Part shown: positions 850-52,340 of the stretch, piece after piece | Numbering within the stretch: position 1 is the first letter of the stretch | Layout: each line of letters opens with the position of its first letter | Assembly (NCBI GenBank): GCA_001805965.1 | Contig: MHHG01000027.1 | Coordinates: forward strand, 477 to 64,476 | DNA from: Omnitrophica WOR_2 bacterium RIFOXYA2_FULL_38_17 | GTDB lineage: Bacteria > Omnitrophota > Gorgyraeia > Zapsychrales > Zapsychraceae | Length of the DNA stretch: 64,000 bases | Direction of reading: 5' to 3' | Translations under genes and position numbers: made by a program | The notes under the pieces: model-generated | The model's database searches: none | Told to the model about the DNA's origin: nothing | The model's input: only the letters and a program-made list of their open reading frames with translations

Positions 850-1395
850 TTAATCTTCAATTTCAACATACTCAGCTAATTTTGATATAGTTTTGTATCC
901 TATTTTTCCGTCTTGTTTTAAACCATGCATTTTTTGAAAATCAATTACCGCCTGCTTTGTTTTTCTTCCAAATGTGCCATCTATTTTTCCATCATACAGA
1001 TCAGCAACGCTTAAAATTTCTTGAATAAGAAGCATATTTAGCTTACCATCCTTAATTAAATTCTTGTCTTTAAACTCTACAAGCTTCGACCAAGTTTCAT
1101 TATCAACTTTTCTTGTTTCTTTAAGCCCAACATCCTTCTGAAATCTTTCTACGGCATCTCTTGTTCTGATCCCCCACTTTCCGTCAATTACTCCTGGATC
1201 ATAACCGTATATTTTCAATAGAACCTGAATGTCTTCGATGGTATGATTGGACTCATTGAGCTCAATCTCCCCGACCAGCTCTTTTTCATCTGCCCCCTCT
1301 TTGTCCAATGTTCGGTATAAAGCATCACAGCCACCAAGGGTAAGCAAGGAAAGCAATAAACTGTTAAATAAGAGCATCTTTGCGTTTTGATTCAT
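850..1395 (-). CDS. Putative peptidoglycan-binding lipoprotein (two PG_binding_1-like repeats)
   Basis: The N-terminus has a signal peptide with a lipobox (LGGC). There are two repeats, DGKWGIRTRDAVERFQ and DGTFGRKTKQAVIDFQ, typical of peptidoglycan-binding domains. Confidence 0.55.
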   Translation of the reverse strand: MNQNAKMLLFNSLLLSLLTLGGCDALYRTLDKEGADEKELVGEIELNESNHTIEDIQVLLKIYGYDPGVIDGKWGIRTRDAVERFQKDVGLKETRKVDNETWSKLVEFKDKNLIKDGKLNMLLIQEILSVADLYDGKIDGTFGRKTKQAVIDFQKMHGLKQDGKIGYKTISKLAEYVEIED

Positions 1396-1451: not shown

Positions 1452-2084
1452 ATGATTATTAATATGTACCAGGAAATAACACATAGCTTTACAAGCAAAA
1501 AATCCTTACTGAGAACAATTCAAAACGACAATATTGTTTATTACTGGTTTTCTTTGCTGTTTTTAAATAAGAGCCTTAGGGCCACTCTTTCACAAAACAA
1601 AAACACAGCCCTTTCTTACAAAGAATTCATTGCATCTTTATATTTTCGTTTTATTCTGGTCTTTTTCTTAGCACTCTTTGCTTCAGCAATGTTGTTCCAC
1701 GTATTTTCAGACATCTATTGGGCCGTTCTCTTGCCTGTAATAGCGCTATACTTAAGCGCACAAAAAAAAGGCTTTAAAGCTTTCTGTAATATTTTTGAAG
1801 AATTTATCAATCAAAATTTTGATTCAGATTCTTTGCAAAAAAAAACCTTATATCAAATTGGCGAATTCTATGGCGACAGGTATGCGATCCATTCCCTCGT
1901 AGATACCTTACAGCGCAATATTAAAACTTATACTTATTTTTTTGGAATATCTTTTGTTTTTTTGGTTTTTATTTACCCGATCAATACCCTCGTCACTTGT
2001 CTTGGATTGCTCACAACAGTTCTCATAATAAGAATTTACTTCAACACCTTCTCTCTTCTAAGACATCTACAGAACAACAAATAA
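1452..2084 (+). CDS. Hypothetical membrane protein
   Basis: A 210-aa ORF with several hydrophobic segments and no recognisable motif. It overlaps the 3' end of the convergent rSAM gene by 18 nt. Confidence 0.3.
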   Translation: MIINMYQEITHSFTSKKSLLRTIQNDNIVYYWFSLLFLNKSLRATLSQNKNTALSYKEFIASLYFRFILVFFLALFASAMLFHVFSDIYWAVLLPVIALYLSAQKKGFKAFCNIFEEFINQNFDSDSLQKKTLYQIGEFYGDRYAIHSLVDTLQRNIKTYTYFFGISFVFLVFIYPINTLVTCLGLLTTVLIIRIYFNTFSLLRHLQNNK

Positions 2085-3959
2085 AGAAACCGCTATAGCG
2101 ACAAAACACTTGATACCAAAAGAAGACGTTGAAAAGAAATAAAACAGCGTGATCACATAAGCCATAAAAGAAGTGAGCTTTTCATTAAGATTCTTATGCT
2201 CAAAGACAATTTGGTCCAAAGAATAGCTGCTCCAGTTCAAATTAAGAAGCTTATCCTGCTCTAACATTCTTTGATAGAGCTTTGACCCTGGCAAAGGCGT
2301 TAGCAGCCCTACTGATGTGATCGTTGGCCTCAATTTAAAACAAAATTTCCACAAGTCCAACAAGCTTTTGTAATTGTCTTTCTCAAAACCAAAAATAAAT
2401 TGCGCATCTATTTGAATGCCTTTTTTCATGATCTTTTTACTCAGCTCCAAATATTGATCTGCCATAGAGAACTTGCCTTTTTTTTCTTTTTCTATCGAAA
2501 CAGCCGCGATCTCATATCCAATAAGCAGCTGAATACAGCCGCTTCTCTTGACTAGATCCAACACTTCATCATCTTTCGCAATATCTATGCTGGCTGAGCC
2601 GCTCCATGAAATGTTCATCTTTTCTAAGGCCTTGAACAATTCAATGGAATATTTTGGCTCAGCATAGATGTTATTGTCCAGAAAAAGAACCGTCGATTTG
2701 TTCATCTTAAAATTTTCTAAGATCTTAATAACATTCTCTATTGGCCTATGCCGTATCTTTTTAAAAGTCATGCTCGGAATTACACAAAAATCACAACTGA
2801 ATTTACATCCTCTTGTTGTCTCGATCTGTATGATCCTTTGCCTTTCTGCAACATCTATAATATATTCATCCACCTTTTCATAAAAATTATCCCTTGGCTC
2901 TCCATAATACTTTTGCTGCAAGCGATCATTTTCATAATCCTGTATAATTTTATCCCAAACACTTTCAGCCTCTCCAATCACAACACTATCACAAAAACAC
3001 AATGCCTCATCAGGTAAAAACCCTGCGTGGGCACCACCCATTATGACTTTAGATCCCCGTGCTCTAAACTTTTTTGCAATTGAATAAGCCTCGTACACAT
3101 TTGAGGAAAAGGATGTTATTGCTACTAGCTTTCCGGGCATATATTCTTCTGGCAGCAAATCAACATTAGAAAATGTTTTCACTGCATAATCTTTTGGAGT
3201 TAACGCTTTAAGAACAAAGAAAAGCCAAGGGTTTTTTGGATACAGAAAAGTATGAATGTAGCTTAAAAACCCTTTCGGTTTTGGATTTATCAAATAAAGC
3301 TCTTTAGCATTTGGATCTGCAATATATGTTTTTCTGTATGGATAAACTGCAAAGTATCCTAAATATAAAAATAAATATAGCTGGATATATTTCGAAAAAA
3401 GCAAAGTAACTCTAGCAATCTCGATCTCTTCAAGATCAATAAATTGTGGAATATAAAAAAGGCCTACGTCGATAAAATACAGGACGAGTATAAGCAGAAA
3501 CTCTTTTACTTCAATTGGTGGGCTCTTTGAACAACCTTCGTTGCCCTGCAGTTTTTTTGCTTTAACTATAAAAAACGCTATTAAAGGATACGTTAATATT
3601 TGAAAATGATTTTTAGCATATAGAAAATCCCAGCCATTAAAATAGTTCAAATTAAAGGAAAAGACCATATCGACAACAATGATTAATGCAAGATAAGCTA
3701 TATACGTCCAGAAGTATTTCTTGCAACTCAAAAGAAACCCTTTAATATCTAATTGATAGCGCTCATCTATAAGAAAATTAACACATGTTGCAAAGATTCC
3801 GCCATAAAAAAATGTTTTCGCAACTAGAAAGACAGGCGCAACATACAGACCAGCACCAAAAGCCACAAGCCTTGCAAATGCAACATCAAGCATATATGCA
3901 ATAAAGACAACAATAAAAGCTTTGTTGGCAAGACGCGATATTCTTTTATTTAAATTCAT
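2067..3959 (-). CDS. B12-binding radical SAM enzyme fused to an N-terminal polytopic membrane domain
   Basis: The first ~240 aa are very hydrophobic with multiple predicted TM helices. Then comes a Rossmann-like B12-binding region (KVIMGGAHAGF). The radical SAM core carries a CxxxCxxC motif (RGCKFSCDFCVIP). The C-terminus is hydrophobic. Confidence 0.75.
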   Translation of the reverse strand: MNLNKRISRLANKAFIVVFIAYMLDVAFARLVAFGAGLYVAPVFLVAKTFFYGGIFATCVNFLIDERYQLDIKGFLLSCKKYFWTYIAYLALIIVVDMVFSFNLNYFNGWDFLYAKNHFQILTYPLIAFFIVKAKKLQGNEGCSKSPPIEVKEFLLILVLYFIDVGLFYIPQFIDLEEIEIARVTLLFSKYIQLYLFLYLGYFAVYPYRKTYIADPNAKELYLINPKPKGFLSYIHTFLYPKNPWLFFVLKALTPKDYAVKTFSNVDLLPEEYMPGKLVAITSFSSNVYEAYSIAKKFRARGSKVIMGGAHAGFLPDEALCFCDSVVIGEAESVWDKIIQDYENDRLQQKYYGEPRDNFYEKVDEYIIDVAERQRIIQIETTRGCKFSCDFCVIPSMTFKKIRHRPIENVIKILENFKMNKSTVLFLDNNIYAEPKYSIELFKALEKMNISWSGSASIDIAKDDEVLDLVKRSGCIQLLIGYEIAAVSIEKEKKGKFSMADQYLELSKKIMKKGIQIDAQFIFGFEKDNYKSLLDLWKFCFKLRPTITSVGLLTPLPGSKLYQRMLEQDKLLNLNWSSYSLDQIVFEHKNLNEKLTSFMAYVITLFYFFSTSSFGIKCFVAIAVSLFVVL

Positions 3960-4095: not shown

Positions 4096-4521
4096 TTGTT
4101 TTATGCTATCTTATCTGAAAGTAATGCTTTTAACAAAGGATATCAAATGAACAATAAAAACATCCTTATTGGCGCTTTTATAATAATTCTTCTGTTTATT
4201 AATTTTGTTTTTAGGCCTTTTCTTCACAAAAGAGAATCGTTTAGGATTGTTGACAAAGTCTTATCCCTTTGGGAAGAAGGTGATATTCCATCCTCATATT
4301 TCTATTGGGACAACCCAAAGAAAATGCCTCCGGTAACCAGACTTCTCTCTCATGAAATCATTAAGAAAGAATTCTACAAAAAAGACAGAAAAAACCGTTC
4401 AAAAGTAACCGTTATCGCGGATTTCGGAAAAAACGAAAATTTGCCCGCAGGCAAGTGGATATTTGAATTAAGCTATACCGATATTGGCTGGAAAATTGTA
4501 GAATTCTACACAGTCAGATAA
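4096..4521 (+). CDS. Hypothetical membrane-anchored protein
   Basis: An ORF with an N-terminal TM segment (ILIGAFIIILLFINFVF). The likely start is the internal Met at about 4147. No recognisable domain. Confidence 0.35.
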   Translation: MFYAILSESNAFNKGYQMNNKNILIGAFIIILLFINFVFRPFLHKRESFRIVDKVLSLWEEGDIPSSYFYWDNPKKMPPVTRLLSHEIIKKEFYKKDRKNRSKVTVIADFGKNENLPAGKWIFELSYTDIGWKIVEFYTVR

Positions 4522-4549: not shown

Positions 4550-6622
4550 TCAAACAATTATTCTTGCATCAACCGCAAAGCTTCCTTCATCATTTGAGAT
4601 CAATGGATTGATATCTATTTCCTTAACAAGCGGTGCTAATTTCTGCACCGAACATAAAGTTTGAATTATCGACTCTTTATGTGCTTTCATGCCTCTAAAA
4701 CCATTTAGCACTTTTTGGCCTTTAATTGACGCGATCAGTCGTTCTGCCTCGATCTTGCCAAATGGAACAACTCTAAACGAGACATCCTTCATTAGCTCAA
4801 CAAAGACCCCTCCCAAGCCGAACATAACCACCGGACCGAATTGGGGATCTATGCTCATGCCAATAATACATTCTATGCCCTTGGTCATCTGTATCATATT
4901 AACCCCCAGAAGCTGTGCATTCGGAGCTAACTTGGGAATATTTGTCATCATACTGTTAAATTTGACCCTGATCTCTTCCGCATCAGAAATATTTAATGCA
5001 ACGCCTCCGACATCCGTCTTGTGAATGATATCAGGTGACGCAATTTTCATTGCTAATGGATACATTCCTTCTGCCTTTTCGATTGCTTCTTCAACCGTTC
5101 TCGCAAATGCCCATTTGGGAGTAGGAACTCCGCATTTTTCCATAATCTCTCTTGCTTCATGCTCAAGAAGCAAAGACCTGCCTTCTTTTTTGATCTTATT
5201 GATCATGTCAACAACTTCTTGAGGAGCCTTTTCCTGCCCGGGAACATCTTTAGGCCTATTACAAATATCTTTCCAAGTATGCAGGATCTTTAAAGCAGAA
5301 ACTGCCTGATCCACTGAATCATAAGCCGGTATATTATTTTGACTTAAAAAATGAAGCGCACTTCTAGATCTTTCGCCTCCAACAAATGCTGCAACAATAG
5401 GCTTGTTTCTTTCAACCGTTCTATACTCTTCGGCAACTGCTTTAGCGATATCCAAAGGATCTGTTACTGCTGTTTCACAATACAGCACAATGACACAATG
5501 GATCTTATCTTCTTCAAGTGATATCCTTATTGCTTTTCTATAACCTTCAACGCCTGCCCCTCCTGTTATATCAATAGGATTTTTCGTGCTGCCAAAGTCA
5601 GGCATTGTTTTTCGAAACTTCTCTTCTGTCCAAGCTACGTCTTCCAGTAATTGAATACCTGCCTCTTCACACGCATCAGTTGTTGATACACCTATGCCTC
5701 CTCCATTTGTGATCACAATTGTTTCTTCTCCCTGAGGCAGAGGAAGCGCAAACGCCCTTGCCCAGCCAAAAGCATCCGTAAAAGAGCTCGCTCTTAATGC
5801 TCCCATTTGTTTAAATGCCGCATCAAAAATACCATCCGCGCCTGCCAAAGATCCTGTATGGGACGCTGCCGCTTTTGCGCCCCTTTGTGAACGTCCTACT
5901 TTTAAAACAATGACAGGCTTTTTAATTTCCGTGTTTAAAAATTTGCGCCCGTCTTTAAGGCCCTCCATGTAAATAAGAACAACGTCAATATTATCATCAT
6001 TGTTAAAATGCTCTATTAGGTCTTTTTCATCAACATCTGCTTTGTTTCCAAGGCTGACTAAAGAGCCTAAGCCAATGCTTTCCATAACTGTCCAGCCCAT
6101 CAAAGCAATGGCCAGTGCGCCGCTTTGGGAGACAAAAGCAATTTTTCCCGACAAAATATCCTGAGGGCCGAAACTTGCATTCAGCTTAAGGGGAGTATAT
6201 AGAAATCCTAAAATGTTAGGTCCTATAAAAGCCATCTTGTTTTCGTCGGCTATTTTTTTGATCTTTTCCTCGTCGGCATGATTTCCCACTTCAGCAAATC
6301 CTGATGTGATGATAGCAACATTTTTTACTTTCTTTTTGGCGCATTCTTCCATTGTTGCAACCACAAAAGGGGCTGGAATAGTAATAACCGCAAGGTCAAT
6401 ATCTCCTGGGACATCTGAAACGGACTTGTATGATTTTTTCCCCAAGATCTCATCATCTTTTGGATTAATAGGATATATCGCGCCTTCAAAACCACCGGCG
6501 ATAACATTGTTCAGTATCTGATATCCTATTTTTGAAGGATTTGCGGACGCGCCAATAACCGCGACGCTTTTAGTATTAAAAAACCCTTCTAGGTTCTTCG
6601 AGTAAACAGCTTGTTTTTTCAT
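4550..6622 (-). CDS. Acetate--CoA ligase (ADP-forming), fused alpha/beta subunits (ACD family)
   Basis: A 690-aa protein with a CoA-binding N-terminus, a succinyl-CoA-synthetase-like flavodoxin domain and a C-terminal ATP-grasp. This is the ADP-forming acyl-CoA synthetase architecture. Confidence 0.8.
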   Translation of the reverse strand: MKKQAVYSKNLEGFFNTKSVAVIGASANPSKIGYQILNNVIAGGFEGAIYPINPKDDEILGKKSYKSVSDVPGDIDLAVITIPAPFVVATMEECAKKKVKNVAIITSGFAEVGNHADEEKIKKIADENKMAFIGPNILGFLYTPLKLNASFGPQDILSGKIAFVSQSGALAIALMGWTVMESIGLGSLVSLGNKADVDEKDLIEHFNNDDNIDVVLIYMEGLKDGRKFLNTEIKKPVIVLKVGRSQRGAKAAASHTGSLAGADGIFDAAFKQMGALRASSFTDAFGWARAFALPLPQGEETIVITNGGGIGVSTTDACEEAGIQLLEDVAWTEEKFRKTMPDFGSTKNPIDITGGAGVEGYRKAIRISLEEDKIHCVIVLYCETAVTDPLDIAKAVAEEYRTVERNKPIVAAFVGGERSRSALHFLSQNNIPAYDSVDQAVSALKILHTWKDICNRPKDVPGQEKAPQEVVDMINKIKKEGRSLLLEHEAREIMEKCGVPTPKWAFARTVEEAIEKAEGMYPLAMKIASPDIIHKTDVGGVALNISDAEEIRVKFNSMMTNIPKLAPNAQLLGVNMIQMTKGIECIIGMSIDPQFGPVVMFGLGGVFVELMKDVSFRVVPFGKIEAERLIASIKGQKVLNGFRGMKAHKESIIQTLCSVQKLAPLVKEIDINPLISNDEGSFAVDARIIV

Positions 6623-6755
6623 TGTTTTTTCCTTTTGTAATGCTCTATTTATAATAATAAAAACTAGACTATTCTAACAAATAAGATTTTCATTGCCAAC
6701 AGTTAATAAAAAATAGTGTGCCTAAAACCCGCAATTTCTGTAAAAACAGGCTCTG

Positions 6756-7208
6756 TCATCCTTCTCTTACAGAATAACTGTTTTTTTTCAATATCTGGCT
6801 GCCTTCACCTGACAACAGAAACTTGAGAAATGCCCGGCCACCATCTTTTTTCTTTACGCTATAAACTAAAATAAACTTGCTAATAATTTGTTGAGAGTCT
6901 CTGTCAAAAAGCTCAAACTCTTTTTTCTCATACAATTCCCCTGCGCTAAGCTTGTCCGCATCCGGCAAACCTAACTGGTCCGCCAATATAACCCTATATT
7001 GTGGGTACATTTGTTCAAAAGAGCCCTTGATTGCTATAAAAGAGCTATCCATTCTTTTGTCAAACAGCACTGTAATTATATTCTGCTGTTGTTTTACGAT
7101 CTTGGACATCTTATAAACATCTCCCCGGGTATAAAGGCTAACAGATACTACTGCTACAACAAGTGAAGACGCAAACATTTTGAGTATTTGTAGTTTAGTT
7201 AACTTCAT
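6756..7208 (-). CDS. Short ModA-like (periplasmic-binding-protein-like) protein, last gene of the Moco cluster
   Basis: It has a signal/TM N-terminus. The C-terminal segment RAFLKFLLSGEGSQILKKNSY resembles the C-terminus of molybdate-binding ModA. At 150 aa it is too short for a full PBP. Confidence 0.4.
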   Translation of the reverse strand: MKLTKLQILKMFASSLVVAVVSVSLYTRGDVYKMSKIVKQQQNIITVLFDKRMDSSFIAIKGSFEQMYPQYRVILADQLGLPDADKLSAGELYEKKEFELFDRDSQQIISKFILVYSVKKKDGGRAFLKFLLSGEGSQILKKNSYSVREG

Positions 7209-7212
7209 TTTG

Positions 7213-7710
7213 CTAATGCCCCTCTCCTTTTATCATTGCGATTGCATGGGTAATGAGTCCAGAGATCGCACCAATGGATTCCTCTGCCCCTTTGAGGCTT
7301 CCAGGGAGATTAACAATAATTGTCTGACCCTTAATGCCCGCAACCCCTCTTGATAAATAAGCTGCCTTGGTTTTTTTGGCTCCTTCTGCTCTAATACATT
7401 CTGACAATCCCGGAATCACTCTTTCAACCACTTTTAACGTAGCCTCTGGCGTATTATCTCTGGGGCCAAAGCCTGTTCCTCCCACTGTTAAAATCAAATC
7501 TGTTTTTTTTTCTTTTAGTGCCGAGTTCAGCTTGTCAATAATTTGTGAAGATTCATCTGAGACAATTTCATAAAAAACAACTTCATACCCTTCATTTTTC
7601 AAAAATGCAGCAATACTTTTACCGCTAAAATCATTATCAAAAGTCCTTGAATCGCTGACTGTCAACACCCCGATTTTGATATCTTTGAAACTATCTAAAT
7701 CATGCCGCAT
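7213..7710 (-). CDS. moaB: Molybdenum cofactor biosynthesis protein MogA/MoaB
   Basis: The GGTGFGPRDNTPEA motif is present and the size fits the MogA/MoaB fold. The stop/start overlaps the upstream MOSC gene. Confidence 0.85.
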   Translation of the reverse strand: MRHDLDSFKDIKIGVLTVSDSRTFDNDFSGKSIAAFLKNEGYEVVFYEIVSDESSQIIDKLNSALKEKKTDLILTVGGTGFGPRDNTPEATLKVVERVIPGLSECIRAEGAKKTKAAYLSRGVAGIKGQTIIVNLPGSLKGAEESIGAISGLITHAIAMIKGEGH

Positions 7711-8290
7711 TCAACACCTTAAAGTCCTTTTCTGATTTATAGGATATGCCCTGACTTTGTCCAACACTTGCTCTTGTTATCTTGATAACTGAATTAGGAT
7801 AAACAGCCCCTCCTTTAAGAACCCTCGCAAAAAATCCTTCTCTAGGCATAATACAATCACCTGTTCGATAAAAAATACTGCAAGGAGCAGGACATTCTTT
7901 TCCTATGCGCGAAACCTGCAAAACCACGTCTTCCGCAATTTCGATTATATCATTGAGCATTAATTCCAAAGAATCTATCCCTTTTGTTGTAATATTTTCC
8001 GCGAAAGATCCTGGCATCAACACAATATCTTTTTGATGATCGCTCATCTTTTCTTTTAAAGCTCGCTTCTGTTTCTCGATGCTTTCTAATGCCAGGAAGC
8101 TGACCTGCCTCGTTTCATCATCAGGAGCAGAATGAGCATCGCTTTGTATTCCTATGCCCTTAATCAAAACTGCTTTCCTAACTGGGGTTTTGCCGATTCC
8201 CTTTTTTTCGCTTATATTAACAGTGCAAATCTCTCCAAATCCTACAACAATATTTTGATTTTCAACACGCTCACGCTCTCTTATAGGCAC
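7700..8290 (-). CDS. MOSC domain-containing protein
   Basis: The MOSC-like core is PGSFAENITTKGID...PAPCSIFYRTGD...RVLKGG. It sits inside the Moco operon and overlaps both neighbours. Confidence 0.65.
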   Translation of the reverse strand: MPIRERERVENQNIVVGFGEICTVNISEKKGIGKTPVRKAVLIKGIGIQSDAHSAPDDETRQVSFLALESIEKQKRALKEKMSDHQKDIVLMPGSFAENITTKGIDSLELMLNDIIEIAEDVVLQVSRIGKECPAPCSIFYRTGDCIMPREGFFARVLKGGAVYPNSVIKITRASVGQSQGISYKSEKDFKVLNAA

Positions 8291-8741
8291 CGTCTTTTCC
8301 CCCGCTTTTCTCTAGTAAGCATATTTCCTCAATACATATTTCCTTGTTAAACATTTTTAGCATATCATAAACGGTAAGCGCTGCTATAGCTACTGCTATC
8401 ATCGCTTCCATTTCGATGCCGGTCTTGGCTGTTGTCTTTGCTATAGATTCTATACGAATGCCGCCTTTTTCAAAACAAAAAGATAATCCTACTTTATCAA
8501 TTTCAATATTATGGCATAAGGGTATTAGTTCTTCAGTTTTTTTAGCAGCCATTATCCCTGCGATTCTAGCCGTTTCAATAATATTGCCTTTAGGGGCCTT
8601 GTTATTCTTGACCATCACAATAAGCTCATTATCCATTTTTACAAATGCCGTAGCTTTTGCGACCCTCAGCGTCTTATTTTTTTCACTTATATCGATCATC
8701 CCTAAAGATACTTCTTTTTTATCCATTTTATCCCCCGACAC
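8271..8741 (-). CDS. moaC: Cyclic pyranopterin monophosphate synthase MoaC
   Basis: Conserved MoaC sequence (MIDISEK...TLRVAKA...IAGIMAAKKT...LCH) and a length of about 156 aa. Confidence 0.85.
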   Translation of the reverse strand: MSGDKMDKKEVSLGMIDISEKNKTLRVAKATAFVKMDNELIVMVKNNKAPKGNIIETARIAGIMAAKKTEELIPLCHNIEIDKVGLSFCFEKGGIRIESIAKTTAKTGIEMEAMIAVAIAALTVYDMLKMFNKEICIEEICLLEKSGGKDGAYKRA

Positions 8742-9699
8742 TGCTCATTTCAACATGATGATCAATGACTGCGCTCTTTTTGTTATGTTTATGTTTGTCG
8801 GCAATAATATCTATTAACAGTTCTCTTATTGTTTCATCTGATGCGCCGTTTCTTACCAGTCCTTTAACATTATATAAATAGCCTGAGAACAGGCACGGGG
8901 CAATTCTTCCGGCACTGTCCATCCTCAAGCGGTTACATTCCCCGCAAAAGTGCTTGCTTAAATTACTAATAAATCCGACAGTGCCTTTTGCCTCTTTTAA
9001 CCTGAAATATTCAGCCGGACCATTACCGACGACATTCCCTTCAGGCAACAGCCCTCCATATTTACTAACGATCATTTCTTTTGCCTCTGAGCTGCTGAGC
9101 AATCCATTTTGCTGGACCTTTAAACGATTTGACGTCCTAAACAGTTCAATGAACCTGACATCTATTTTATGATTAATTGTTAATTTTGCAAAATCAAGTA
9201 TCTCATCCTCATTGATTCCTCTAAGTAAAATCATATTCAGCTTTAGTGGAAAAATGCCAACATCAATTGATTTTTCTATTCCTTGCCATACCTGCCCAAA
9301 GCAATCCCGGCCAGTGATCTGATAAAATCTTTCGCGCCTTAAAGTATCAAGGCTTATGTTGATCCTGTCCAAACCGCTTCTCTTGAGCTCTTCAACAATA
9401 TCATAAAGAAAAACACCGTTTGTAGTTAAAGAAACCTCCTCGATCCCGTCGATCTTTTTAAACAAGCTGACTGCCGTACAAATATCCTCTTTTATTAACG
9501 GCTCTCCTCCTGTGAGCCTTATCTTGCTTATACCAAGACCTGCTAAAATCCTGACAACCCTCACTATTTCTTCTAACCGTAAGATCTCACAACTATCAAG
9601 AAAATGTTTTTTTTCTAGAGGATTACAATAAAAGCAGTTCAAATTACAATTATCTGTCAGGGAAAGCCTTAAGTAATCTGTTTTGGTTTTTATTTCCAT
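8728..9699 (-). CDS. moaA: GTP 3',8-cyclase MoaA (radical SAM)
   Basis: The N-terminal CNLNCFYCNP radical SAM cluster motif is present. The C-terminal MoaA Fe-S cysteines (CGECNRLR) are present. Confidence 0.9.
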   Translation of the reverse strand: MEIKTKTDYLRLSLTDNCNLNCFYCNPLEKKHFLDSCEILRLEEIVRVVRILAGLGISKIRLTGGEPLIKEDICTAVSLFKKIDGIEEVSLTTNGVFLYDIVEELKRSGLDRINISLDTLRRERFYQITGRDCFGQVWQGIEKSIDVGIFPLKLNMILLRGINEDEILDFAKLTINHKIDVRFIELFRTSNRLKVQQNGLLSSSEAKEMIVSKYGGLLPEGNVVGNGPAEYFRLKEAKGTVGFISNLSKHFCGECNRLRMDSAGRIAPCLFSGYLYNVKGLVRNGASDETIRELLIDIIADKHKHNKKSAVIDHHVEMSSVGG

Positions 9700-10892
9700 G
9701 TAAAATATTTAACTCTCTGTCCTTCGACAATCCTTGCAACATTCTCTTCAACCTCCATAAAACCTTCAGAATCTGACAAAGTTTTTATATCAGCTGACTC
9801 ATAATTTGTTGAAGGACACAAAAGACAATCCGATCCGCTTTTTTCTATTGTTACAAGAACAAAATGCCTTCTTGATGAATCTTGTTGAACAAAAGTTTTT
9901 TGCAGAATTCCTTCTTTAAATGCCGGCAAATAATTTTTTATTCCAGACAATTTAAGCATAGCCGTTCTAACATAGATCATGTATGTTAAGAACACAGAAA
10001 TTGGATTTCCGGGTAACCCAAAGACAAGTGTCTTGTTCTTTTTGCCAAAATACAAAGGCCTGCCGGGCTTAATACTTACCCTATGAAATATTTCCTGTAC
10101 ACCAAGATTTTTTAACACTTCCGGAACCAGGTCAAACTCTCCTCTTGAAACACCCCCTGAGACCAATAGAACATCGCTATTTAGGCCAGAGCCAAAAGAG
10201 CTTTGCATTTCAGCCTCTATGTCTCGAACAACAGAATATGACTCAAGGTCAAAGCCATCCTCTTTAATCATCGCTTTTAACATGGGGCCATTAGTGTTAA
10301 ATATTTCGTTGGCACCTAAAGATCCCCCTATCTCAACGATCTCGCCGCCAGTGTTGACCAACGAGACCTTTGGCTTTTTGCACACAGAAACTCTTGCTTT
10401 TCCAACGGAGGCAATTGCAGCTATATTTGATATTGAGAGAACAGTCCCTTTTTTTACAACTAAATCCCCAGCTTTAATATCATGGGCCTTGTTACAAATA
10501 TTTTCACCTTGCTCTAGCCTTTTGAGCACTTCAACAAGCCCTGTCGCTTCCTCCTCTTTTGTATCCTCTACCATAATTACGCTATTAGCCCCTTTTGCCA
10601 AAGGCGCACCCGTCATAGTTTTAACACACTCTCCCTTTTGTATCGTCCCTAAAAATTCTTCACCGGCGGAAACAAACCCAATGTTCTTGATCTTATTCCC
10701 AATATTCTGAGTATCTTCTGCCAACAAAGCATATCCATCGCGAATAGATTTATCAAAGGGCGGCATATTGAGAAGAGAAACAACATCCTCCTGCAGCAAA
10801 AAACCAACAGCATCCTCAGTCCTTACCGAGCAACTATCTAAATTATTTGTGTTATGTAACAGCAATTCTATTGATTCTTTGAAACTTATCAT
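9690..10892 (-). CDS. moeA: Molybdopterin molybdenumtransferase MoeA
   Basis: MoeA N, MoCF-biosynthesis and C-terminal domains are present, including a GGVSxGxxD-like motif. It overlaps moaA by 10 nt. Confidence 0.85.
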   Translation of the reverse strand: MISFKESIELLLHNTNNLDSCSVRTEDAVGFLLQEDVVSLLNMPPFDKSIRDGYALLAEDTQNIGNKIKNIGFVSAGEEFLGTIQKGECVKTMTGAPLAKGANSVIMVEDTKEEEATGLVEVLKRLEQGENICNKAHDIKAGDLVVKKGTVLSISNIAAIASVGKARVSVCKKPKVSLVNTGGEIVEIGGSLGANEIFNTNGPMLKAMIKEDGFDLESYSVVRDIEAEMQSSFGSGLNSDVLLVSGGVSRGEFDLVPEVLKNLGVQEIFHRVSIKPGRPLYFGKKNKTLVFGLPGNPISVFLTYMIYVRTAMLKLSGIKNYLPAFKEGILQKTFVQQDSSRRHFVLVTIEKSGSDCLLCPSTNYESADIKTLSDSEGFMEVEENVARIVEGQRVKYFTWK

Positions 10893-33848: not shown

Positions 33849-35504
33849 TTACACCACCTTTGGCTCTTTGGACATTTTCCACTGAGTAAACGTTGAAAAA
33901 AGATAAAACATTGTAAAATACAAAGTCAGTCCGCTTGCAAATTTATAAAAGATAAAGCCTAAAAACAAAGGAAAAATCCTGCTCATCATTTTTTGCTGAG
34001 CAAGTTGAGCAGGATCGGCAGCTGTCATATTTTGTGTTGATAATTTTTGTTGAAAATACATAACTATCATCATGATTAGAGGCAAAATATTGATTTCATT
34101 ACCAATAATAGGAATGTTTTGTGGCCATGTGGGAGGAAAAACAAACAATCTATCTGGCGCAGATAAATCCTTTATCCATAAAAATCCTGCCCCTTTTAAA
34201 GAAACAGAGCGCCATAAAACTTGATATAGCCCAATAAAAACCGGCATTTGCAGTAGCATCGGCAAGCATCCGCCCAATGGATTAATCTTGTTTTCTTTAT
34301 ATATTTTCATCATTTCCTCATTCATTTTCTGAGGATTGTTTTTATATTTTTCCTTTAAAGCGTTGACCATTGGTTGCATAGATTGCATTCTCTTCATTGA
34401 CACCATTGACCTTTTTGTTAAAGGATACATCGAAAAATAAATCACAACGCTTATTAAAAGAATACATACTCCCCAGTTTGGAACAATATTATACATTAAA
34501 TCCATAATTGAATGTATAAACTTTGCAATTGTGTCAAATAGGCCAAAACGATAATATTTCCTAATTTTTTCAAAAGAATAATCAAACTTTTTCAATATAC
34601 TTAACTTTTCAGGCCCAAAATAGCAAATAAACGATAGAGATTCTTCCTGATCCTTACTTCCATTTACAAACAGTGGCTCTATTTCTACCTTAAGCCTTTC
34701 CTTATCAATAGGATTCAGAGAAAAACCTTTTGTTTCAAATAAAGGCTTAAATATGGCGCAGTAATATCTGTTCCTAAAACCAACCCAATTAATGCTATCC
34801 TGCTTTACCATCCTATCTTTAGGTGAAAACTTAAAAGCATTGTTTTTTCTAATCATTTCTTTTGTAGAAAAAACAACATATTCATTTAACGATTTATCTG
34901 TTGATCTAGAAGAATCTCCTCCATGCTTACTCACACCATTGTCCAGACTGGACATATCAGCTGTGTATATTCCAATTGCCAGTTCTGACAGATTGGACAT
35001 TTTAGTCTTTCCTACAATCGAAATATCTACCTGAACGGAATAATCCTCTTTTCCCAAAACAAAGTTTTTAGTAACCAAATAATTTTCATCTTCATATGTA
35101 TAAGAAACTGATCTGTCAGTTTTTTCAGTAAGAACAAATTCTACATTTTCAAGACCAAAAACACTACCTATTTTATTCAAAGGTAGCATCTCTTCATATT
35201 TTTTAATAAAAACACTATCTAGAGTTCCTCCAATATTTGAAGTTCCTAAATCAAGCGTGTCTCCCTCAATCAATGATATTTTTTTGTTTTTAAAATCCAC
35301 CTGCAGAGGAAGAGAATCCGATTCATTGTCCATGGATGTCTCTTGTTCGTCAGAAGGGAGGGGCTTTAATATATCCTGTTGCCCTGAAATAGTTTGCGTT
35401 TTCTCAATATTGGAAGTATTCTTAACTGGTTTTGGCGTGACAGCTTGCCATAGATATAATGTTAAAAATGACAAAATCACAGCTAATAAAAATCTTTTTT
35501 CCAT
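33849..35504 (-). CDS. yidC: Membrane protein insertase YidC
   Basis: It has an N-terminal TM helix, a large periplasmic domain and a C-terminal 5-TM 60-kDa_inner_membrane core (PLGGCLPMLLQMPVFIGLY). Confidence 0.9.
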   Translation of the reverse strand: MEKRFLLAVILSFLTLYLWQAVTPKPVKNTSNIEKTQTISGQQDILKPLPSDEQETSMDNESDSLPLQVDFKNKKISLIEGDTLDLGTSNIGGTLDSVFIKKYEEMLPLNKIGSVFGLENVEFVLTEKTDRSVSYTYEDENYLVTKNFVLGKEDYSVQVDISIVGKTKMSNLSELAIGIYTADMSSLDNGVSKHGGDSSRSTDKSLNEYVVFSTKEMIRKNNAFKFSPKDRMVKQDSINWVGFRNRYYCAIFKPLFETKGFSLNPIDKERLKVEIEPLFVNGSKDQEESLSFICYFGPEKLSILKKFDYSFEKIRKYYRFGLFDTIAKFIHSIMDLMYNIVPNWGVCILLISVVIYFSMYPLTKRSMVSMKRMQSMQPMVNALKEKYKNNPQKMNEEMMKIYKENKINPLGGCLPMLLQMPVFIGLYQVLWRSVSLKGAGFLWIKDLSAPDRLFVFPPTWPQNIPIIGNEINILPLIMMIVMYFQQKLSTQNMTAADPAQLAQQKMMSRIFPLFLGFIFYKFASGLTLYFTMFYLFSTFTQWKMSKEPKVV

Positions 35505-35698
35505 AATGTATTATAATCCTTGCTTGGGTCTAACAGTGTTTAGACAGAACGAGTCGTATTACCTGTTTTCCAAAAATTGTATTTGATAATCAGGGGATCT
35601 GTTTGAATTTGTATGTTTAAATTGGCAAATAATGCTTTTTAACATAATCTCGGTCTACACAGTGCTTTTCAAAAACAGATTTATTGGCCTGTTTGGAA

Positions 35699-35836
35699 TT
35701 ATTTGGTTAACTGTTTTCGACCTTTAGCGCGGCGCCGATTAAGAACTTCTTGACCATCGCTAGTTTGCATTCTTTTTCGAAAGCCGTGCGCTCTTTTGCC
35801 TTTTATATTTGTAGGTGTCTTTAAATGCTTTTTCAT
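35699..35836 (-). CDS. rpmH: 50S ribosomal protein L34
   Basis: The minus-strand 45-aa [48 protein letters not shown] matches L34. It is under 60 aa, so absent from the ORF track. Confidence 0.85.
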
Positions 35837-36434
35837 AATTTGTAGATTATATCACACGACTTTTTATAGTCAAGCGATTTCAATATGCTTTAAAAACAAA
35901 ACTTGTTAAATTACAATATCTAGCGAAAAATCAATATTAACTTTTTTATCGACGATAATAATTCGAACTATAATCAATTTTACCCTGCTCAAACAATTAA
36001 AACATAAAAATACTTCTTGTTTCTATTGTTAAACGGTTCATAAGCCTAATATTTGCTAGTGTTTTAGTGTCAGCAAAATATTTAATTTGAAATAAAAATT
36101 TTCTCTGTTATAATATGGCACTTTAGTTATATTTTATTGCGCTTCCAATAAGTCTGTTGTTACCATGACTTTTTTGTTGCAATTTAGCATTAACTCTTGT
36201 AATCTTTGGTACAAGGGGCCGAAATATAACACAATCGGTTTTATTCTTTAACAAGTCGCTTTGCCAATACTTGCCGTAAAGTAATCCATTATATCGGGGC
36301 TAAAGAATCCACACCTGTGGAAAACTTGTTAATACTGTTATTGTTTCTGTAATTCATTTATTTTCAACATATTACGTCTTTGCAAATTAATCTTTTAAAC
36401 TTTAACTCCTCGTAAGAATCAGGAACTTGCTTAA
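35837..36434. other. Candidate chromosomal replication origin (oriC) in the rpmH/dnaA intergenic region
   Basis: A ~600-bp AT-rich non-coding region between divergent rpmH and dnaA. Gene strand bias switches exactly here. Two facing DnaA-box-like 9-mers are present: GAATCCACA at 36305-36313 and TGTGGAAAA at 36316-36324. Confidence 0.55.
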
Positions 36435-37769
36435 ATGTCTCTAAAAGCTGTTTGGGAAAATTCACAAAAAACTATAAAAGAAAAAATCGGTACAGCTTCT
36501 TATGATACCTGGTTTACTTCAATACAAATCAAAGAAACTTCTCCTCAAACGCTTTCTTTGGAAGCTCCTGATGATTTTTTTAAAAACTGGATAGTCGAAC
36601 ATTATAAAGTGCTGCTCGAGGAAATCCTTTCATCAGCAGCTTCTTTTGCTGTAAATCTGGAGTTTAAAGTAAATCCTGCTGTTTTAGAGGAGGCTCCCCG
36701 AGAGCAAGCTTCCATCTTTCAAAAAGAGTACAACAGTTTCACTAATGACACAACCAATCTAAATTCAAGGTTTACTTTTGATAATTTTGTCATCGGGCCA
36801 TCAAATCGATTTGCTTGTGCCGCTAGTCTGGCCGTCGCTGAATCTCCGGCTAAAGCATATAATCCGCTATTCATTTATGGCCAGGTCGGCTTGGGAAAAA
36901 CTCATTTGATACAAGCTATCTCTCAAAAAATATTGGAACTGAATTCAAACTTAAAAATCTGCTACAAGTCTTCCGAACAATTTACAAACGAATTGATAGA
37001 CGCTATACGACATAGATCAACGCCGGAGTTTAGAAAAAAATACCGCGAAATTGATGTTTTGCTTATTGATGATATACAATTTATCGCCGGCAAGGACTCT
37101 ACGCAAGAAGAGTTTTTCCATACATTTAATAATTTACATAACAATAGAAAACAGCTAATCATTACTTCTGACAGGCCTCCAAAGGAAATAGCAAAACTTG
37201 AAGAGCGCCTAAGTTCCAGATTTGCCTGGGGATTAATTGCAGATATTCAGCCTCCGGACTATGAAACAAGAGTGGCGATCTTAAAGAAAAAAATAGAACA
37301 TGAACCCCTTGCTGTGCCAGATGAAGTGATTCATTACATCGCGGATAAAATTAAAACCAATATAAGGGAACTTGAAGGAGCATTAATAAGAGTAACCGCT
37401 TATTCATTGTTGGAAGAAAAACCATTAACGTTTGAAATGGCAAGAAGTATCTTAAAAGATATGATAAAGGAAACAGCGAAAATTATTAGCATTGAGATGG
37501 TACAAAAAATGGTAGCTGAACGCTTTAATGTCACTTTGAATGAACTGAAATCAAATAAAAGAAACAAAAATATAGTTATGCCTAGACAAATTGCCATGTA
37601 TTTAGCCAGACAATTAACTCAGCTATCTTTGCCGGAAATAGGGGGGGCTTTTGGAGGTAAAGACCATACAACAGTTTTACACTCTTGTAAAAAGATTGTA
37701 AAAGATTTAGAATTAAACGCTGAACTAAAAAATTCTATCAACGGGTTATTGTTTGATTTAAAGCAATGA
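36435..37769 (+). CDS. dnaA: Chromosomal replication initiator protein DnaA
   Basis: AAA+ Walker A GQVGLGKTHL. The C-terminal DnaA signature (IAMYLARQLT...GGKDHTTVLHSCKKI) is present. Confidence 0.95.
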   Translation: MSLKAVWENSQKTIKEKIGTASYDTWFTSIQIKETSPQTLSLEAPDDFFKNWIVEHYKVLLEEILSSAASFAVNLEFKVNPAVLEEAPREQASIFQKEYNSFTNDTTNLNSRFTFDNFVIGPSNRFACAASLAVAESPAKAYNPLFIYGQVGLGKTHLIQAISQKILELNSNLKICYKSSEQFTNELIDAIRHRSTPEFRKKYREIDVLLIDDIQFIAGKDSTQEEFFHTFNNLHNNRKQLIITSDRPPKEIAKLEERLSSRFAWGLIADIQPPDYETRVAILKKKIEHEPLAVPDEVIHYIADKIKTNIRELEGALIRVTAYSLLEEKPLTFEMARSILKDMIKETAKIISIEMVQKMVAERFNVTLNELKSNKRNKNIVMPRQIAMYLARQLTQLSLPEIGGAFGGKDHTTVLHSCKKIVKDLELNAELKNSINGLLFDLKQ

Positions 37770-37911
37770 TTAAGTGTTTGTATGCAAGATTTTAACAGCC
37801 AAATTGTTCTTAAATAATTGAAATATAATCACTTTACACCTTGTTCGAATTATTAACAGGTACTACGTATACGATTACTATTTAGATCTTTAACTTAGTT
37901 ATAGGAAGGAA

Positions 37912-39009
37912 ATGAATAAGATGAAACTAAAAATGAAAAGAGATGATCTCCTAATAGGTATTCAAACTGTACAGAATGTTGTATCGAGTAAAGCAACACT
38001 ACCTATTCTATCTAATGTATTATTAGAGATTAGCAATAATATTCTGAAATTAAATGCAACAGATTTGGATATTGGGATTTCCTGTGCAATACCTGTGGAA
38101 TCTATTGAAGAAGGAGCAATAACTATTCCTGCAAAAAGATTTAGCGATATAATTAAAGAATTGCCTGTTGGGGATGTCAATATTTATGCAAAGAAAAACA
38201 ATCAAATTGATATTGAAGGAAAAAATTGTAGATTTAAGTTGAATGGTCTTCCAAAAGAGGAATTTCCAAAATTTCCAGAATTTAAAGACAATGAGATGAT
38301 CAGAATTCAACAGGCAGATCTAAAAGAAATGTTTAAATTAACCTCTTTTGCCGCGTCTCATGAGGAATCAAGGTATGTTTTAAATGGAGTTTTAATTGAA
38401 TTATCAGATGACCTTATAAGAATAGTTGCAACTGATGGTAGAAGATTGGCGAAAATTGAAAAAAAATTAAATTCTTCTATTAAAAAAGAGGTTAGTGTTA
38501 TTATTCCAATAAAAGCAGTGCAGGAAATCAACAGAAATCTCAAGGAAGAAGGGGAAGTCTCCTTTATTATAGGTACAAATCAAATTTTGTTCGATATTGA
38601 TGGAGTTTTGATTGCAACCAGGGTAATTGAGGGGGAATTTCCTAATTATAACCAAGTTATTCCAAAACCAATCAAAACAAAGGTCAATGTTAACACAAAA
38701 GATTTTCTTTATACTATTAAAAGGGCAAATTTATTAGCAACACCTGATTTTCAAGCGGTTAAATTCGAGATTTTTAATGATAAAATGGTTGTTTCTAAAC
38801 ATACTCCTGATGTTGGAGAATCGAGAGAAGAAATTCCTATTGAATATACTGGTCCGGAATTTATAGTTGGTTTTAATCCTGTTTTTCTAATTGATTTTTT
38901 AAAAAATATTAATAAAGAAACAATTGGTATTGAATTTTTAGGTCCTGATAAACCCGCAGTTATAAGGATAGATGATTATTTGTATTTAGCCTTACCAATG
39001 AGAATATAG
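37912..39009 (+). CDS. dnaN: DNA polymerase III beta sliding clamp
   Basis: 365 aa with a three-domain beta-clamp pattern. It lies immediately downstream of dnaA. Confidence 0.9.
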   Translation: MNKMKLKMKRDDLLIGIQTVQNVVSSKATLPILSNVLLEISNNILKLNATDLDIGISCAIPVESIEEGAITIPAKRFSDIIKELPVGDVNIYAKKNNQIDIEGKNCRFKLNGLPKEEFPKFPEFKDNEMIRIQQADLKEMFKLTSFAASHEESRYVLNGVLIELSDDLIRIVATDGRRLAKIEKKLNSSIKKEVSVIIPIKAVQEINRNLKEEGEVSFIIGTNQILFDIDGVLIATRVIEGEFPNYNQVIPKPIKTKVNVNTKDFLYTIKRANLLATPDFQAVKFEIFNDKMVVSKHTPDVGESREEIPIEYTGPEFIVGFNPVFLIDFLKNINKETIGIEFLGPDKPAVIRIDDYLYLALPMRI

Positions 39010-39096
39010 TGATTTTTAGCATAATTTGTGCATAAACAACAGGGTAGCCTAGGTGTCAATAGGATTGCAAAATAAAAAAAATAATAAATTGATAGA

Positions 39097-41897
<2,801 letters not shown>

Positions 41898-41944
41898 AAA
41901 AGAGAGTTAAAGATTCAAGAATATAGAGAGAAAGGTGTTTTTTA

Positions 41945-44398
41945 ATGAGAGACTTATCAAATAGAGAAAAGATAGTGCCCGTTTATATAGAAGAAGAGAT
42001 GAAGCAATCATATCTTGCTTATTCTATGAGCGTTATTGTTGGGCGCGCGCTTCCGGATGTGCGGGATGGGTTAAAGCCGGTCCATAGACGAGTTTTATAT
42101 GCAATGAAAGAGCTTAGCCTTGAACACAGCAAGCCGTATAAGAAATGTGCGCGTATTGTCGGTGAGGTATTAGGTAAGTATCATCCTCATGGAGATACTG
42201 CGGTTTATGATACCCTGGTTAGAATGGTGCAGGATTTTTCTTTAAGATATCCTCTTATAGATGGCCAAGGCAACTTTGGATCTATAGACGGAGATTCTGC
42301 TGCTGCTATGCGCTATACGGAGGCCAGGATGGCTTCTATTTCAGGCGAAATGCTGAAAGACATTGATAAAGAAACGGTCAGTTATGCTCCTAACTTTGAT
42401 GCTACATTACAAGAGCCGGTTGTTTTACCGGCAACTTTGCCAAATCTTTTGATAAATGGATCAAGTGGTATAGCTGTAGGAATGGCAACAAATATGCCTC
42501 CACACAACATCTCGGAAGCAGTTGACGCTGCTATTTTTCTTATTGATAACCCTGATGCACTTGTAAAACAATTAAACAAGATAGTTACCGGTCCTGATTT
42601 TCCGACGGGCGGTATTATTTGTGGGCGCCAGGGCATAGTAGATGCTTATAATACAGGCCGCGGCAAAATAATAGTTCGCGCAAAAGCGAACATTGAAAGA
42701 CAAAAAGGCAATAAAGACAGGATCATTATTTCGGAGATACCTTATCAGGTTAACAAGGCAAGATTGATAGAGTCGATCGCAGAGCTAGTGTCAACCAAAA
42801 AAATAGATGGCATTACCGATCTAAGAGATGAGTCCGACAAAGAAGGCATTCGTATAGTTATAGAGTTGCGCAGGGATGTAGAACCGCAAATAATTTTGAA
42901 CTATTTGTTTAAACATACGCAAATGGAAACAACTTTTGGCATTATCAACCTTGCATTGGTTAACAATAGCCCAAAGGTTTTGAATTTAAAACAGATTTTA
43001 GTCCATTTTTTGAACCACAGAAGGATAGTTGTTAGAAAGAGAACAGAGTTTGACCTTGATAAGGCCTTGCGCAGGGCTCATGTTTTGGAAGGATTAAAGA
43101 TAGCACTAGACAATATTAACCAGGTCATTAAAACCATCAGGGAATCGAAAAGTACGCCTCTTGCAAAAGTTGCCTTGATGAAAGGCTTTGGGCTTTCAGA
43201 GATCCAGTCCCAGGCAATCTTAGAAATGCAGTTGCAAAGGTTGACCGCGCTTGAAAGAAACAAGATAGACGAAGAATACAAAGCGCTGCTTAAAGACATA
43301 GAGAATTACCGGGCTATTTTAGAATCTGAAAAAATGATAGATGATATTATTAAAGGAGAGCTTGTTGATATAAAGAAAAAATATGGCGATGAGAGAAGAA
43401 CAGAAATTGCCGGCAAGGCTGAAGAGATTGAAATAGAAGACCTTATCGCCGAGGAAGAAATGGCGATAACCATAAGCAATACCGGCTATATTAAAAGATT
43501 AGCAGTGTCTTCATATCGTAACCAGAAAAGAGGCGGCAAAGGGGTATCTGCAATGACAACAAGAGAAGAGGACTTTGTTAAACATCTATTTATTGCCTCT
43601 TCTAAAGATTATCTTTTGATATTTTCTAATAAAGGGATTGTAAGATGGCTCAAGGTTTATGAAATCCCTGTAGCCTCGCGAAATGCAAAAGGCAAGAATA
43701 TTATCAACCTGTTGTCTCTTGAACAAGATGAAGAAATAAGTTCGATTGTTGCTGTTAAAGAATTTTTTGATGACCAGTTCTTGGTTATGTCGACAGCAAA
43801 GGGTAATATAAAAAAGACAAAATTATCAGCTTTCAGCAATCCTAGAAAAAGCGGAATAGTTGCGATCAGCCTAGATAAAGGGGATCGGCTGATAGGCATT
43901 TCTTTAAGTAATGGAAGGCATGAAATTTTGTTGGCTACAAGAGAAGGAAAGGCGTTGCGGTTTAATGAAAAGCACATTCGCGATATGGGCCGTGCTGCAA
44001 GAGGAGTAAAGGGAATTAATCTGGCTAAGGATGATGAGGTCGTAAGCCTTCAGGTTTTTTCATCAGATATTGGTAAAACTGGAAGCACTTTGTTAACAGT
44101 TTCATCAGGAGGCTTTGCGAAGAGGTCAGATTTTAATGATTATCGGGTACAGGCTAGAGGAGGCAAAGGTATTATTAACTTGAAGGTAACTCCCAAGAAT
44201 GGGAATGTTGTTGGTGTTCTGGCTGTAATGACTGAAGATGAAATCATGACAGTTACAAAGACTGGGATGATAGTTCGCTGCTCTACAAAGGATATTCGTA
44301 AATCAGGCAGAAGCACGCAGGGGGTTAAGCTTATTGTGTTGAAAAGCGGAGATAGGGTCAGCTCTGTTGCGAATGTTGTGGCAAAAGAAGCTGAATAA
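41945..44398 (+). CDS. gyrA: DNA gyrase subunit A
   Basis: The active-site region [10 protein letters not shown] with its catalytic Tyr is present. There is a GyrA-box-containing C-terminal beta-pinwheel. Confidence 0.95.
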
Positions 44399-52287: not shown

Positions 52288-52340
52288 ATTTTTTGACCAA
52301 TTGATAATAGGTTTCTGTTTTTTTCCAAAAATAAGCTTTC

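Follow-up and report, generated by a model that had tools for sequence, protein, structure and literature searches.

A putative membrane-integrated radical SAM enzyme of Omnitrophota and its dedicated membrane partner

The stretch of DNA analysed here, which we refer to as the window, comprises 64,000 nucleotides of contig MHHG01000027.1 (positions 477 to 64,476; assembly GCA_001805965.1) from Omnitrophica WOR_2 bacterium RIFOXYA2_FULL_38_17. Close to its start lies a gene that an earlier note, made from the sequence alone, had read as a radical S-adenosylmethionine (SAM) enzyme fused to a large integral-membrane domain. The database record of its product is 'hypothetical protein A2Y03_06270' (OGX21992.1) of Omnitrophica WOR_2 bacterium GWF2_38_59. 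We describe how this protein is predicted to carry membrane segments at either end of a radical SAM core, and how a smaller gene that converges on it, hereafter the partner, accompanies it through most of its family. The features of both genes are listed in Table 1.

Table 1. Features of the enzyme and partner genes (positions in the window; residues of the respective protein; TM, transmembrane; aa, amino acids; ORF, open reading frame; AF2, AlphaFold2; HMM, hidden Markov model)
Feature	Position	Strand	Basis
Membrane-integrated radical SAM gene (predicted)	2067..3959	-	630-aa ORF, ATG start; homologues; AF2 model
N-terminal 6-TM domain, residues 1-208, N-terminus inside (N-in), short cytoplasmic helix 72-81	3336..3959	-	hydropathy, AF2 helices, positive-inside counts
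Rossmann-like 'B12-binding-type' domain, residues 219-372, first strand LYLINP	2844..3305	-	Pfam, model strands, fold match
Radical SAM barrel, residues 373-592	2184..2843	-	Pfam PF04055, Foldseek and HMM matches to solved enzymes
CxxxCxxC cluster-binding motif CKFSCDFC, residues 385-392 (C385, C389, C392)	2784..2807	-	translation
C-terminal hydrophobic helical hairpin, residues 593-630	2070..2183	-	hydropathy, AF2
Partner gene, 210 aa (206 aa as annotated), OGX21991.1 'hypothetical protein A2Y03_06265'	1452..2084	+	alignments, HMM, fusions, topology
Overlap of convergent 3' ends of enzyme and partner genes, 18 nt	2067..2084	.	ORF coordinates

The AlphaFold2 model of the enzyme, built on 107 homologues, reached a predicted local distance difference test (pLDDT) score of 90.2 and a predicted template modelling (pTM) score of 0.83. 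Its long N-terminal helices span residues 3-33, 37-64, 83-103, 112-134, 151-173 and 181-208, and six hydrophobic helices are also indicated by Kyte-Doolittle hydropathy. Over the same 107 homologues, the N-terminus, the linker and loops 2 and 4 carry 2.4-4.4 lysines and arginines per segment, versus just 0.2-0.6 for loops 1, 3 and 5. This distribution therefore places the N-terminus inside the cell, lets the chain cross the membrane with six TM helices and leaves the catalytic domain in the cytoplasm, a location that radical SAM chemistry demands. The earlier note had placed about six TM helices within the first 240 residues; the count holds for hydropathy, model and charge distribution alike, but the domain ends already at about residue 208.

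Downstream of the 6-TM domain, the model shows a Rossmann-like domain with five strands (220-225, 259-264, 278-282, 304-308 and 325-328), in which G308-G309-x-H311 is invariant in the homologue alignment and where Pfam reports a sub-threshold match to B12-binding as well as one to Radical_SAM_N2. The barrel that follows passes the Pfam model PF04055 Radical_SAM (E 1.9e-12, 48.1 bits against a gathering score of 29.5), and Foldseek gives a probability of 1.00 between the enzyme model and many solved radical SAM enzymes. The three cysteines of the cluster-binding motif are invariant among the 107 homologues, which bears out the radical SAM core noticed earlier. Besides these, only C323 and C475 are conserved, so that there is no sign of an auxiliary cluster, and neither a SPASM/twitch nor any other auxiliary-cluster cysteine set is conserved among these homologues. 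The hydrophobic C-terminus, likewise noticed before, is modelled as two helices (593-611 and 613-629) joined at S612 in a T-T-S turn, with a near-invariant G615. As modelled, a membrane anchor flanks the catalytic domain on the N-terminal as well as the C-terminal side and appears to keep it at the inner membrane face.

Among 5.8 billion proteins searched, 1876 homologues of the enzyme came to light. Of the best 120, all at E <= 1e-113, nearly every protein measures 620-660 aa with a coverage above 90%, and the taxon label is Candidatus Omnitrophota wherever one is named. Because of this number of homologues, the significance of the best 120 and their near-uniform length, we take the gene to be real and under selection. 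It represents an uncharacterised and unnamed enzyme family of Omnitrophota, of about 95 clusters at 50% identity, whose existing annotation reads either 'hypothetical' or, generically, 'radical SAM protein'. In representative genomes, full-length matches come from metagenome-assembled genomes (MAGs) of Omnitrophota and from a few labelled Planctomycetales or Elusimicrobia, and those confined to residues ~219-612 are found across many phyla. Several genomes carry multiple paralogues, with tandem arrays of two to three genes in loci L010, L020, L022 and L085; in the window itself there are none, as tblastn recovers only the gene itself.

The profile of the 6-TM domain finds 95 matches among 1.84 billion cluster representatives, all of which have the architecture of the enzyme or are fragments of it, plus two longer proteins, and the domain therefore occurs only in conjunction with this catalytic domain. 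Modelled in isolation it folds with a pLDDT of 89.3, and it finds no significant fold match (best E 0.35) or sequence match in the PDB and no entry in Pfam or NCBIfam. Its mean column identity is 0.39, versus 0.65-0.67 for the catalytic domains, and the C-terminal hairpin is likewise less conserved than the latter. The positions of the 6-TM domain that are conserved in the family consensus (G54, E61, S64, E66, N78, W83, K135, Y136, Y208 and P209) are, without exception, located at a cytoplasmic helix end or in a cytoplasmic loop. Conservation thus falls on the cytoplasmic side, and membrane segments hold the catalytic domain from either end, which together suggest that the cytoplasmic membrane interface is the functional surface.

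The far lower conservation of the 6-TM domain might also mean that the membrane parts merely localise or regulate the enzyme, and that its substrate is a soluble cytoplasmic molecule, modified beside a transporter or secretion apparatus or in response to the state of the membrane. Otherwise ordinary radical SAM enzymes held at a membrane are CDKAL1, by a tail anchor, and viperin, by an amphipathic helix, which act on soluble substrates (tRNA and CTP, respectively). These make do with a single-helix anchor, however, and are not known to have a polytopic domain or a dedicated membrane subunit. Six helices, a hairpin and a four-helix partner far exceed what anchoring needs; moreover, conservation is concentrated on the cytoplasmic face, by the catalytic domain, and the 6-TM domain is never found with another enzyme. 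We therefore regard a purely localising role as quite improbable.

The partner consists of two tight TM hairpins, thus four TM helices, with outer turns of three residues. Its N-terminal ~56 aa and central ~55 aa are rich in lysine and arginine and hence most likely cytoplasmic. All conserved residues of the partner sit in these two segments, namely the invariant D26 and W32 and the conserved series T132-L-Y-Q..E138..Y144..S148-L-V-D151; conserved cysteines or histidines are absent from the partner alignment. Pfam, NCBIfam, PADLOC and the PDB yield no match for the partner, and for the enzyme the PADLOC models of anti-phage defence give only a weak generic radical SAM match (PDC-M51A, 31 bits). 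Homology between the partner and the 6-TM domain was considered and rejected (hhalign probability 0.4%).

Homologues of the partner, at 14-49% identity, hold the same position in distant loci of the family. Among the arrays that could be evaluated with the partner HMM, the partner is immediately convergent with the enzyme gene or array in ~27 of 30 genome loci and in all seven of the metagenome loci, and pooled it abuts the 3' end in ~34 of 37, the stop-to-stop distance in loci other than that of the window ranging from -38 to +51 nt. As exceptions, it lies on the same strand in L026, is absent in L015 and L049, and in L019 is present as a fragment only, 2.3 kb off. Where two or three paralogues of the enzyme form an array (L010, L020, L085), a single partner serves them all. 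Furthermore, one lineage of Omnitrophota has partner and enzyme in a single chain, with the partner as an N-terminal fusion, in two diverged paralogues. The longer, P0184 (MCD4780291.1, 865 aa), comprises the partner at 9-198, the 6-TM domain at 232-446 and the catalytic domain at 452-863, and P0175 (MCD4780287.1, 845 aa) has the same domain order. Both are encoded on one contig, 2.9 kb apart. They are 31.5% identical over their full length and are found in independent assemblies, from which it can be deduced that the fusion is old and stable and not an assembly error. Such Rosetta-stone evidence strongly indicates that enzyme and partner work as one unit. The earlier note had seen no pathway hint in the flanking genes; it missed this conserved, family-specific linkage, and it was right in so far as the partner does not name a pathway.

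Together, the two proteins would bring twelve helices (6 + 2 + 4) into the membrane. Such a transporter-like helix count would befit a machine that modifies a small hydrophobic product or peptide and then passes it across the membrane, all the more since both proteins are lineage-specific and multiple paralogues could mean multiple exported products. Nevertheless, Pfam, NCBIfam and the PDB show no transporter similarity, the conserved unit includes no ATPase or other energising component, and the outer loops measure 1-8 residues and carry no outward-facing conserved residues, so that we consider export very unlikely.

Other genes recurring in the neighbourhood of the family are those for response regulators, a GAF-PtsP-like enzyme, a HAD hydrolase, TPR proteins, an RlmI-like methyltransferase and CpaE-F ATPases. 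These were rejected as parts of the unit: none is found in more than 7 of 32 loci, their positions vary, and none is lipid-related. A scan for promoters and terminators around the gene pair of the window gave counts equal to those of shuffled sequence.

Among solved structures, Foldseek ranks AprD4 first (6fd2, E 9e-17, 436 aligned columns), followed by MgmA (9ccb), TsrM, OxsB, MiaB, CysS and TokK. Sequence profiles match only AprD4 (E 2.5e-10), MgmA and TokK, with MgmA again in second place. AprD4, the radical SAM 1,2-diol dehydratase of apramycin biosynthesis, resembles the window enzyme in having a Rossmann-like domain followed by a barrel with one CxxxCxxC motif, but is a soluble protein of 457 aa that acts on an aminoglycoside, without membrane domains or partner. 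The cobalamin-dependent (class B) enzymes MgmA/QCMT (9ccb), TsrM (6wte), OxsB (5ul4), TokK (7kdx) and CysS (9n1b) share the same two-domain fold (Foldseek E 1e-13 to 1e-9); at 12-17% identity, they too are soluble and lack both a polytopic domain and a membrane partner.

The NCBIfam models return 85.7 bits for TIGR04013, 82.8 for HpnJ (cut-off 577.6), 73.0 for TIGR04072 (360), 72.7 for BchE (481), 48.9 for AprD4 (500) and 41.2 for HpnR (650), the cut-offs of the models compared ranging from 251 to 650. Models of ApyD and of CUAEP-tail enzymes are also among the matches. Relatives from other phyla that are devoid of TM segments score the same baseline, and the similarity is therefore generic, without specific affinity to a characterised family. 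Assignment to a named family was thus rejected, as Pfam, NCBIfam and PADLOC yield only generic matches of the radical SAM/B12 type and all family models stay far below their cut-offs; a clear assignment to a well-characterised soluble family, which by the earlier note's own account would have told against its reading, did not emerge.

That note had also proposed a lipid or other membrane-resident substrate, with known lipid-modifying enzymes as precedents. HpnJ and HpnR (hopanoids), TIGR04072 (ladderane lipid) and BchE do belong to the same broad superfamily branch and have hydrophobic, membrane-associated substrates, known or proposed, but the scores of the window enzyme (41-83 bits against 360-650) are 5- to 15-fold under their curated cut-offs. 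Tes/GDGT-MAS, Mss, GrsA/B and Gms use radical SAM chemistry to functionalise the tails of membrane lipids at unactivated carbons; of these, GrsA/B are of the B12 type (PMC11214058). Tes and Gms carry auxiliary clusters, whereas the present family has no conserved cysteine set for these. The 50 best PDB fold matches, led by AprD4, include no entry described as a tetraether synthase. Compared by model name, Tes, Mss, Grs and HpnP are not represented among the 25 NCBIfam hits at E <= 1.

How does the Rossmann-like domain contribute? The note had called it cobalamin-binding, of which the fold itself is supported by the match of the model to B12-type radical SAM structures. For binding of the cofactor, PF02310 B12-binding is listed for most homologues, but reaches only 24.0 bits in the window protein against a gathering score of 32.1. 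Moreover, the nearest solved relative, AprD4, binds no cobalamin though it is grouped with the B12-radical SAM enzymes (PMC12931638). Because of this sub-threshold match and this cobalamin-free relative, we treat the enzyme as no more than a candidate for cobalamin dependence. There is no universal motif by which a cobalamin site could be recognised: the protein makes no direct contact with the lower side of the cofactor, and which residue lies below is variable (PMC12931638).

The catalytic-domain HMM sorts the wider relatives into three tiers. The 6-TM family scores 468-708; proteins of 412-470 aa, mostly from Omnitrophota, score 340-457; and relatives from many phyla, often encoded in tandem arrays of two to five, score 220-310. 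The middle tier does not have the 6-TM domain and retains the C-terminal hydrophobic hairpin, and the outer tier is without any hydrophobic segment whatsoever. Since the hairpin thus stands alone in the middle tier and is missing from the outer one, membrane attachment predates the gain of the 6-TM domain and partner. Arrays of two to five TM-less paralogues of ~450 aa are found in L056, L057, L060, L064, L066, L067, L073, L074, L077, L079 and L083. They adjoin genes for GH3-like adenylating enzymes in L077 and L066, and for a membrane fatty-acid desaturase in L077; their members reach no NCBIfam cut-off, and this looks like an uncharacterised conserved cluster.

Some hairpin-only relatives lie directly beside a four-gene Tad/Flp cluster (SurA-like peptidyl-prolyl isomerase, CpaB, secretin and CpaE-F ATPase) in L033/L038, L035, L039, L040 and L100, co-directional with it in three loci and convergent in two. 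A functional link between this clade and pilus biogenesis is possible. We treat the adjacency as a lead only and do not use it to explain the 6-TM family, in which CpaE-F-type ATPase genes occur within 6 kb in 4 of ~37 loci. Two further loci of relatives without the 6-TM domain, L031 and L041, have an uninformative context (IscS/NifU, a nucleotidyltransferase and large unknown proteins).

It is at this point that the main rival to a lipid substrate has to be weighed, in which the substrate is a membrane protein: either the partner itself, through its conserved loop T-L-Y-Q..E..S-L-V-D, or a small membrane protein such as a Flp/Tad pilin. The enzyme would then be a membrane-tethered, protein-modifying radical SAM enzyme, for instance a C-methylase or epimerase. 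Protein and peptide modifiers are indeed among its closest relatives, with the protein methylase MgmA second by both fold and sequence, and ApyD and CUAEP-tail models among the NCBIfam matches; the sharing of one partner by two to three paralogues recalls systems in which several enzymes share one precursor; and the proximity of Tad/Flp genes to the hairpin-only sister group, and of CpaE-F ATPases to some 6-TM loci, points in the same direction. Conversely, a fusion of enzyme and partner that has stayed stable through divergence to 31% identity better fits a subunit than a substrate, and a conserved six-helix domain would be unnecessary for reaching a cytoplasmic loop. A pilin gene was not identified next to the family, and the Tad cluster of the window (51328-57632) is located 47 kb from the enzyme gene and has no adjoining radical SAM gene. 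We hold this rival to be unlikely, and the localising and exporting roles discussed above to be less likely.

What we tentatively favour, as possible though still short of probable, is a two-component, membrane-integrated radical SAM enzyme that acts on a membrane-embedded substrate, most likely a lipid or lipid-linked molecule whose hydrocarbon part it would attack. Of this reading, the analysis shows the architecture, the topology, the genetic coupling with its fusion, and the exclusivity of the membrane modules, whereas the class of substrate and the chemistry are inferred. The window gene would encode the catalytic subunit, specific to Omnitrophota, and the ~200-aa four-TM protein would be the second component. 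The 6-TM domain and the C-terminal hairpin would clamp the cytoplasmic Rossmann-like domain and barrel to the inner membrane face. Ten helices from the 6-TM domain and the partner, plus the two of the hairpin, may form an entry site for a membrane-dwelling substrate. On the cytoplasmic side, the conserved residues of both proteins may dock onto the active site, or gate it. There, SAM would be reductively cleaved at the single [4Fe-4S] cluster, and the resulting 5'-deoxyadenosyl radical would attack the substrate at the cytoplasmic leaflet, removing a hydrogen from one of its unactivated carbons. With cobalamin in the Rossmann-like domain, the reaction would be a methylation; without cobalamin, as in AprD4, it could be a rearrangement, cross-link, cyclisation or dehydration. 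Where up to three paralogues are arrayed with one partner, they might carry out modifications that differ or follow one another.

The favoured reading is further supported by the graded series of relatives, from TM-less proteins in other phyla, via hairpin-anchored proteins of 412-470 aa in Omnitrophota, to the polytopic form, and by the predicted fold, which groups with B12-type radical SAM enzymes. In addition, homologues of Mss occur in 15 of 267 and of ElbD in 93 of 267 Omnitrophota MAGs (PMC11868695), and Gms/Hbs homologues occur in Omnitrophota MAGs according to a published survey. Radical chemistry on lipid tails is therefore plausible in this phylum, although these are different families.

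We must however take into account several points that speak against it. By sequence, none of the lipid-modifying radical SAM families in NCBIfam stands out as specifically related to the enzyme, lipid-biosynthesis genes do not recur in the neighbourhoods of the family loci, and a convergent gene pair is an unusual layout for two subunits. As in the earlier note, the lipid or membrane-resident substrate is placed by inference; cobalamin use by the family is no more than possible; and both the packing of the hairpin on the 6-TM domain and any substrate tunnel are assumed. Furthermore, the window protein itself departs from the family consensus of the 6-TM domain at A57, N61, I64, S78, F83, K136 and R209 (A for G, N for E, I for S, S for N where 93% have N, F for W, K for Y where 91% have Y, and R for P). 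Some of these departures are shared by relatives of 70% identity, and the invariants of the catalytic domain are all kept.

The gene pair of the window is flanked by genes for a 181-aa protein with two PG_binding_1 repeats (850-1395, minus strand) and for a 141-aa protein that has a single hydrophobic helix near its N-terminus and matches no family (4096-4521, plus strand). As these are conserved only in the close relative L001, they are not part of the unit. At 4550-10892 follow an ADP-forming acetyl-CoA synthetase (690 aa) and a molybdenum-cofactor cluster (MoaB-like, MOSC, MoaC, MoaA, MoeA), an order that is syntenic in L001, a 69%-identical relative, and not linked to the family in other loci. 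In three other loci (L005 5331-5951, L006 5307-5972 and L010 3250-3915), an ORF of 206-221 aa without a Pfam match immediately precedes the radical SAM gene on the same strand; the window does not have it. Further along, the window contains a chromosomal replication origin region (33849-44398), with yidC on the minus strand, a 930-bp gap (35505-36434), and dnaA, dnaN, gyrB and gyrA on the plus strand; the sign of the GC skew and the orientation of genes both flip at ~36 kb. The Tad/Flp-type pilus cluster of the window encodes a SurA-like peptidyl-prolyl isomerase, RcpC/CpaB, a secretin with a TonB_C domain and a fused CpaE-CpaF ATPase, and close to it lies an unknown 674-aa ORF (58144-60168).

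The earlier note had considered a membrane-embedded version of such an enzyme to be unusual, and this is corroborated: TM segments are absent from the distant relatives, and our literature search found no membrane-bound precedent, with no paper on a polytopic or transmembrane radical SAM enzyme of this kind, nor on this family. In a 2026 review of lipid-modifying radical SAM enzymes the words 'transmembrane' and 'integral membrane' are absent, as is the word 'membrane' in a 2026 review of B12-radical SAM enzymes. The catalytic core is of a known kind, and it is the two membrane modules and their coupling that are new. The partner and the fusion evidence define a two-gene unit, of which MCD4780287.1 and MCD4780291.1 offer a natural single-chain version.

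In its boldest form, which we regard as doubtful, the unit would be the first polytopic integral-membrane radical SAM complex, its modules and hairpin drawing a lipid from the cytoplasmic leaflet and feeding its tail to the active site, with paralogue arrays installing different tail modifications such as methyl branches, rings or cross-links. Lipid-modifying radical SAM enzymes, among which hopanoid methylases, tetraether synthase and ring synthases, are known as soluble or peripheral proteins, and it is still debated mechanistically how such enzymes pull a buried hydrocarbon chain out of the membrane. For this step, a family equipped with a conserved membrane domain and a dedicated membrane subunit would offer a natural object of study. 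The phylum Omnitrophota is widespread and uncultivated, its members being very small and possibly dependent on hosts, and the family, multi-copy in their genomes, marks an unexplored trait of theirs. If the above holds true, Omnitrophota would be in-situ tailors of unusual membrane lipids, and orphan bacterial lipid biomarkers of anoxic sediments and groundwater might stem from them.

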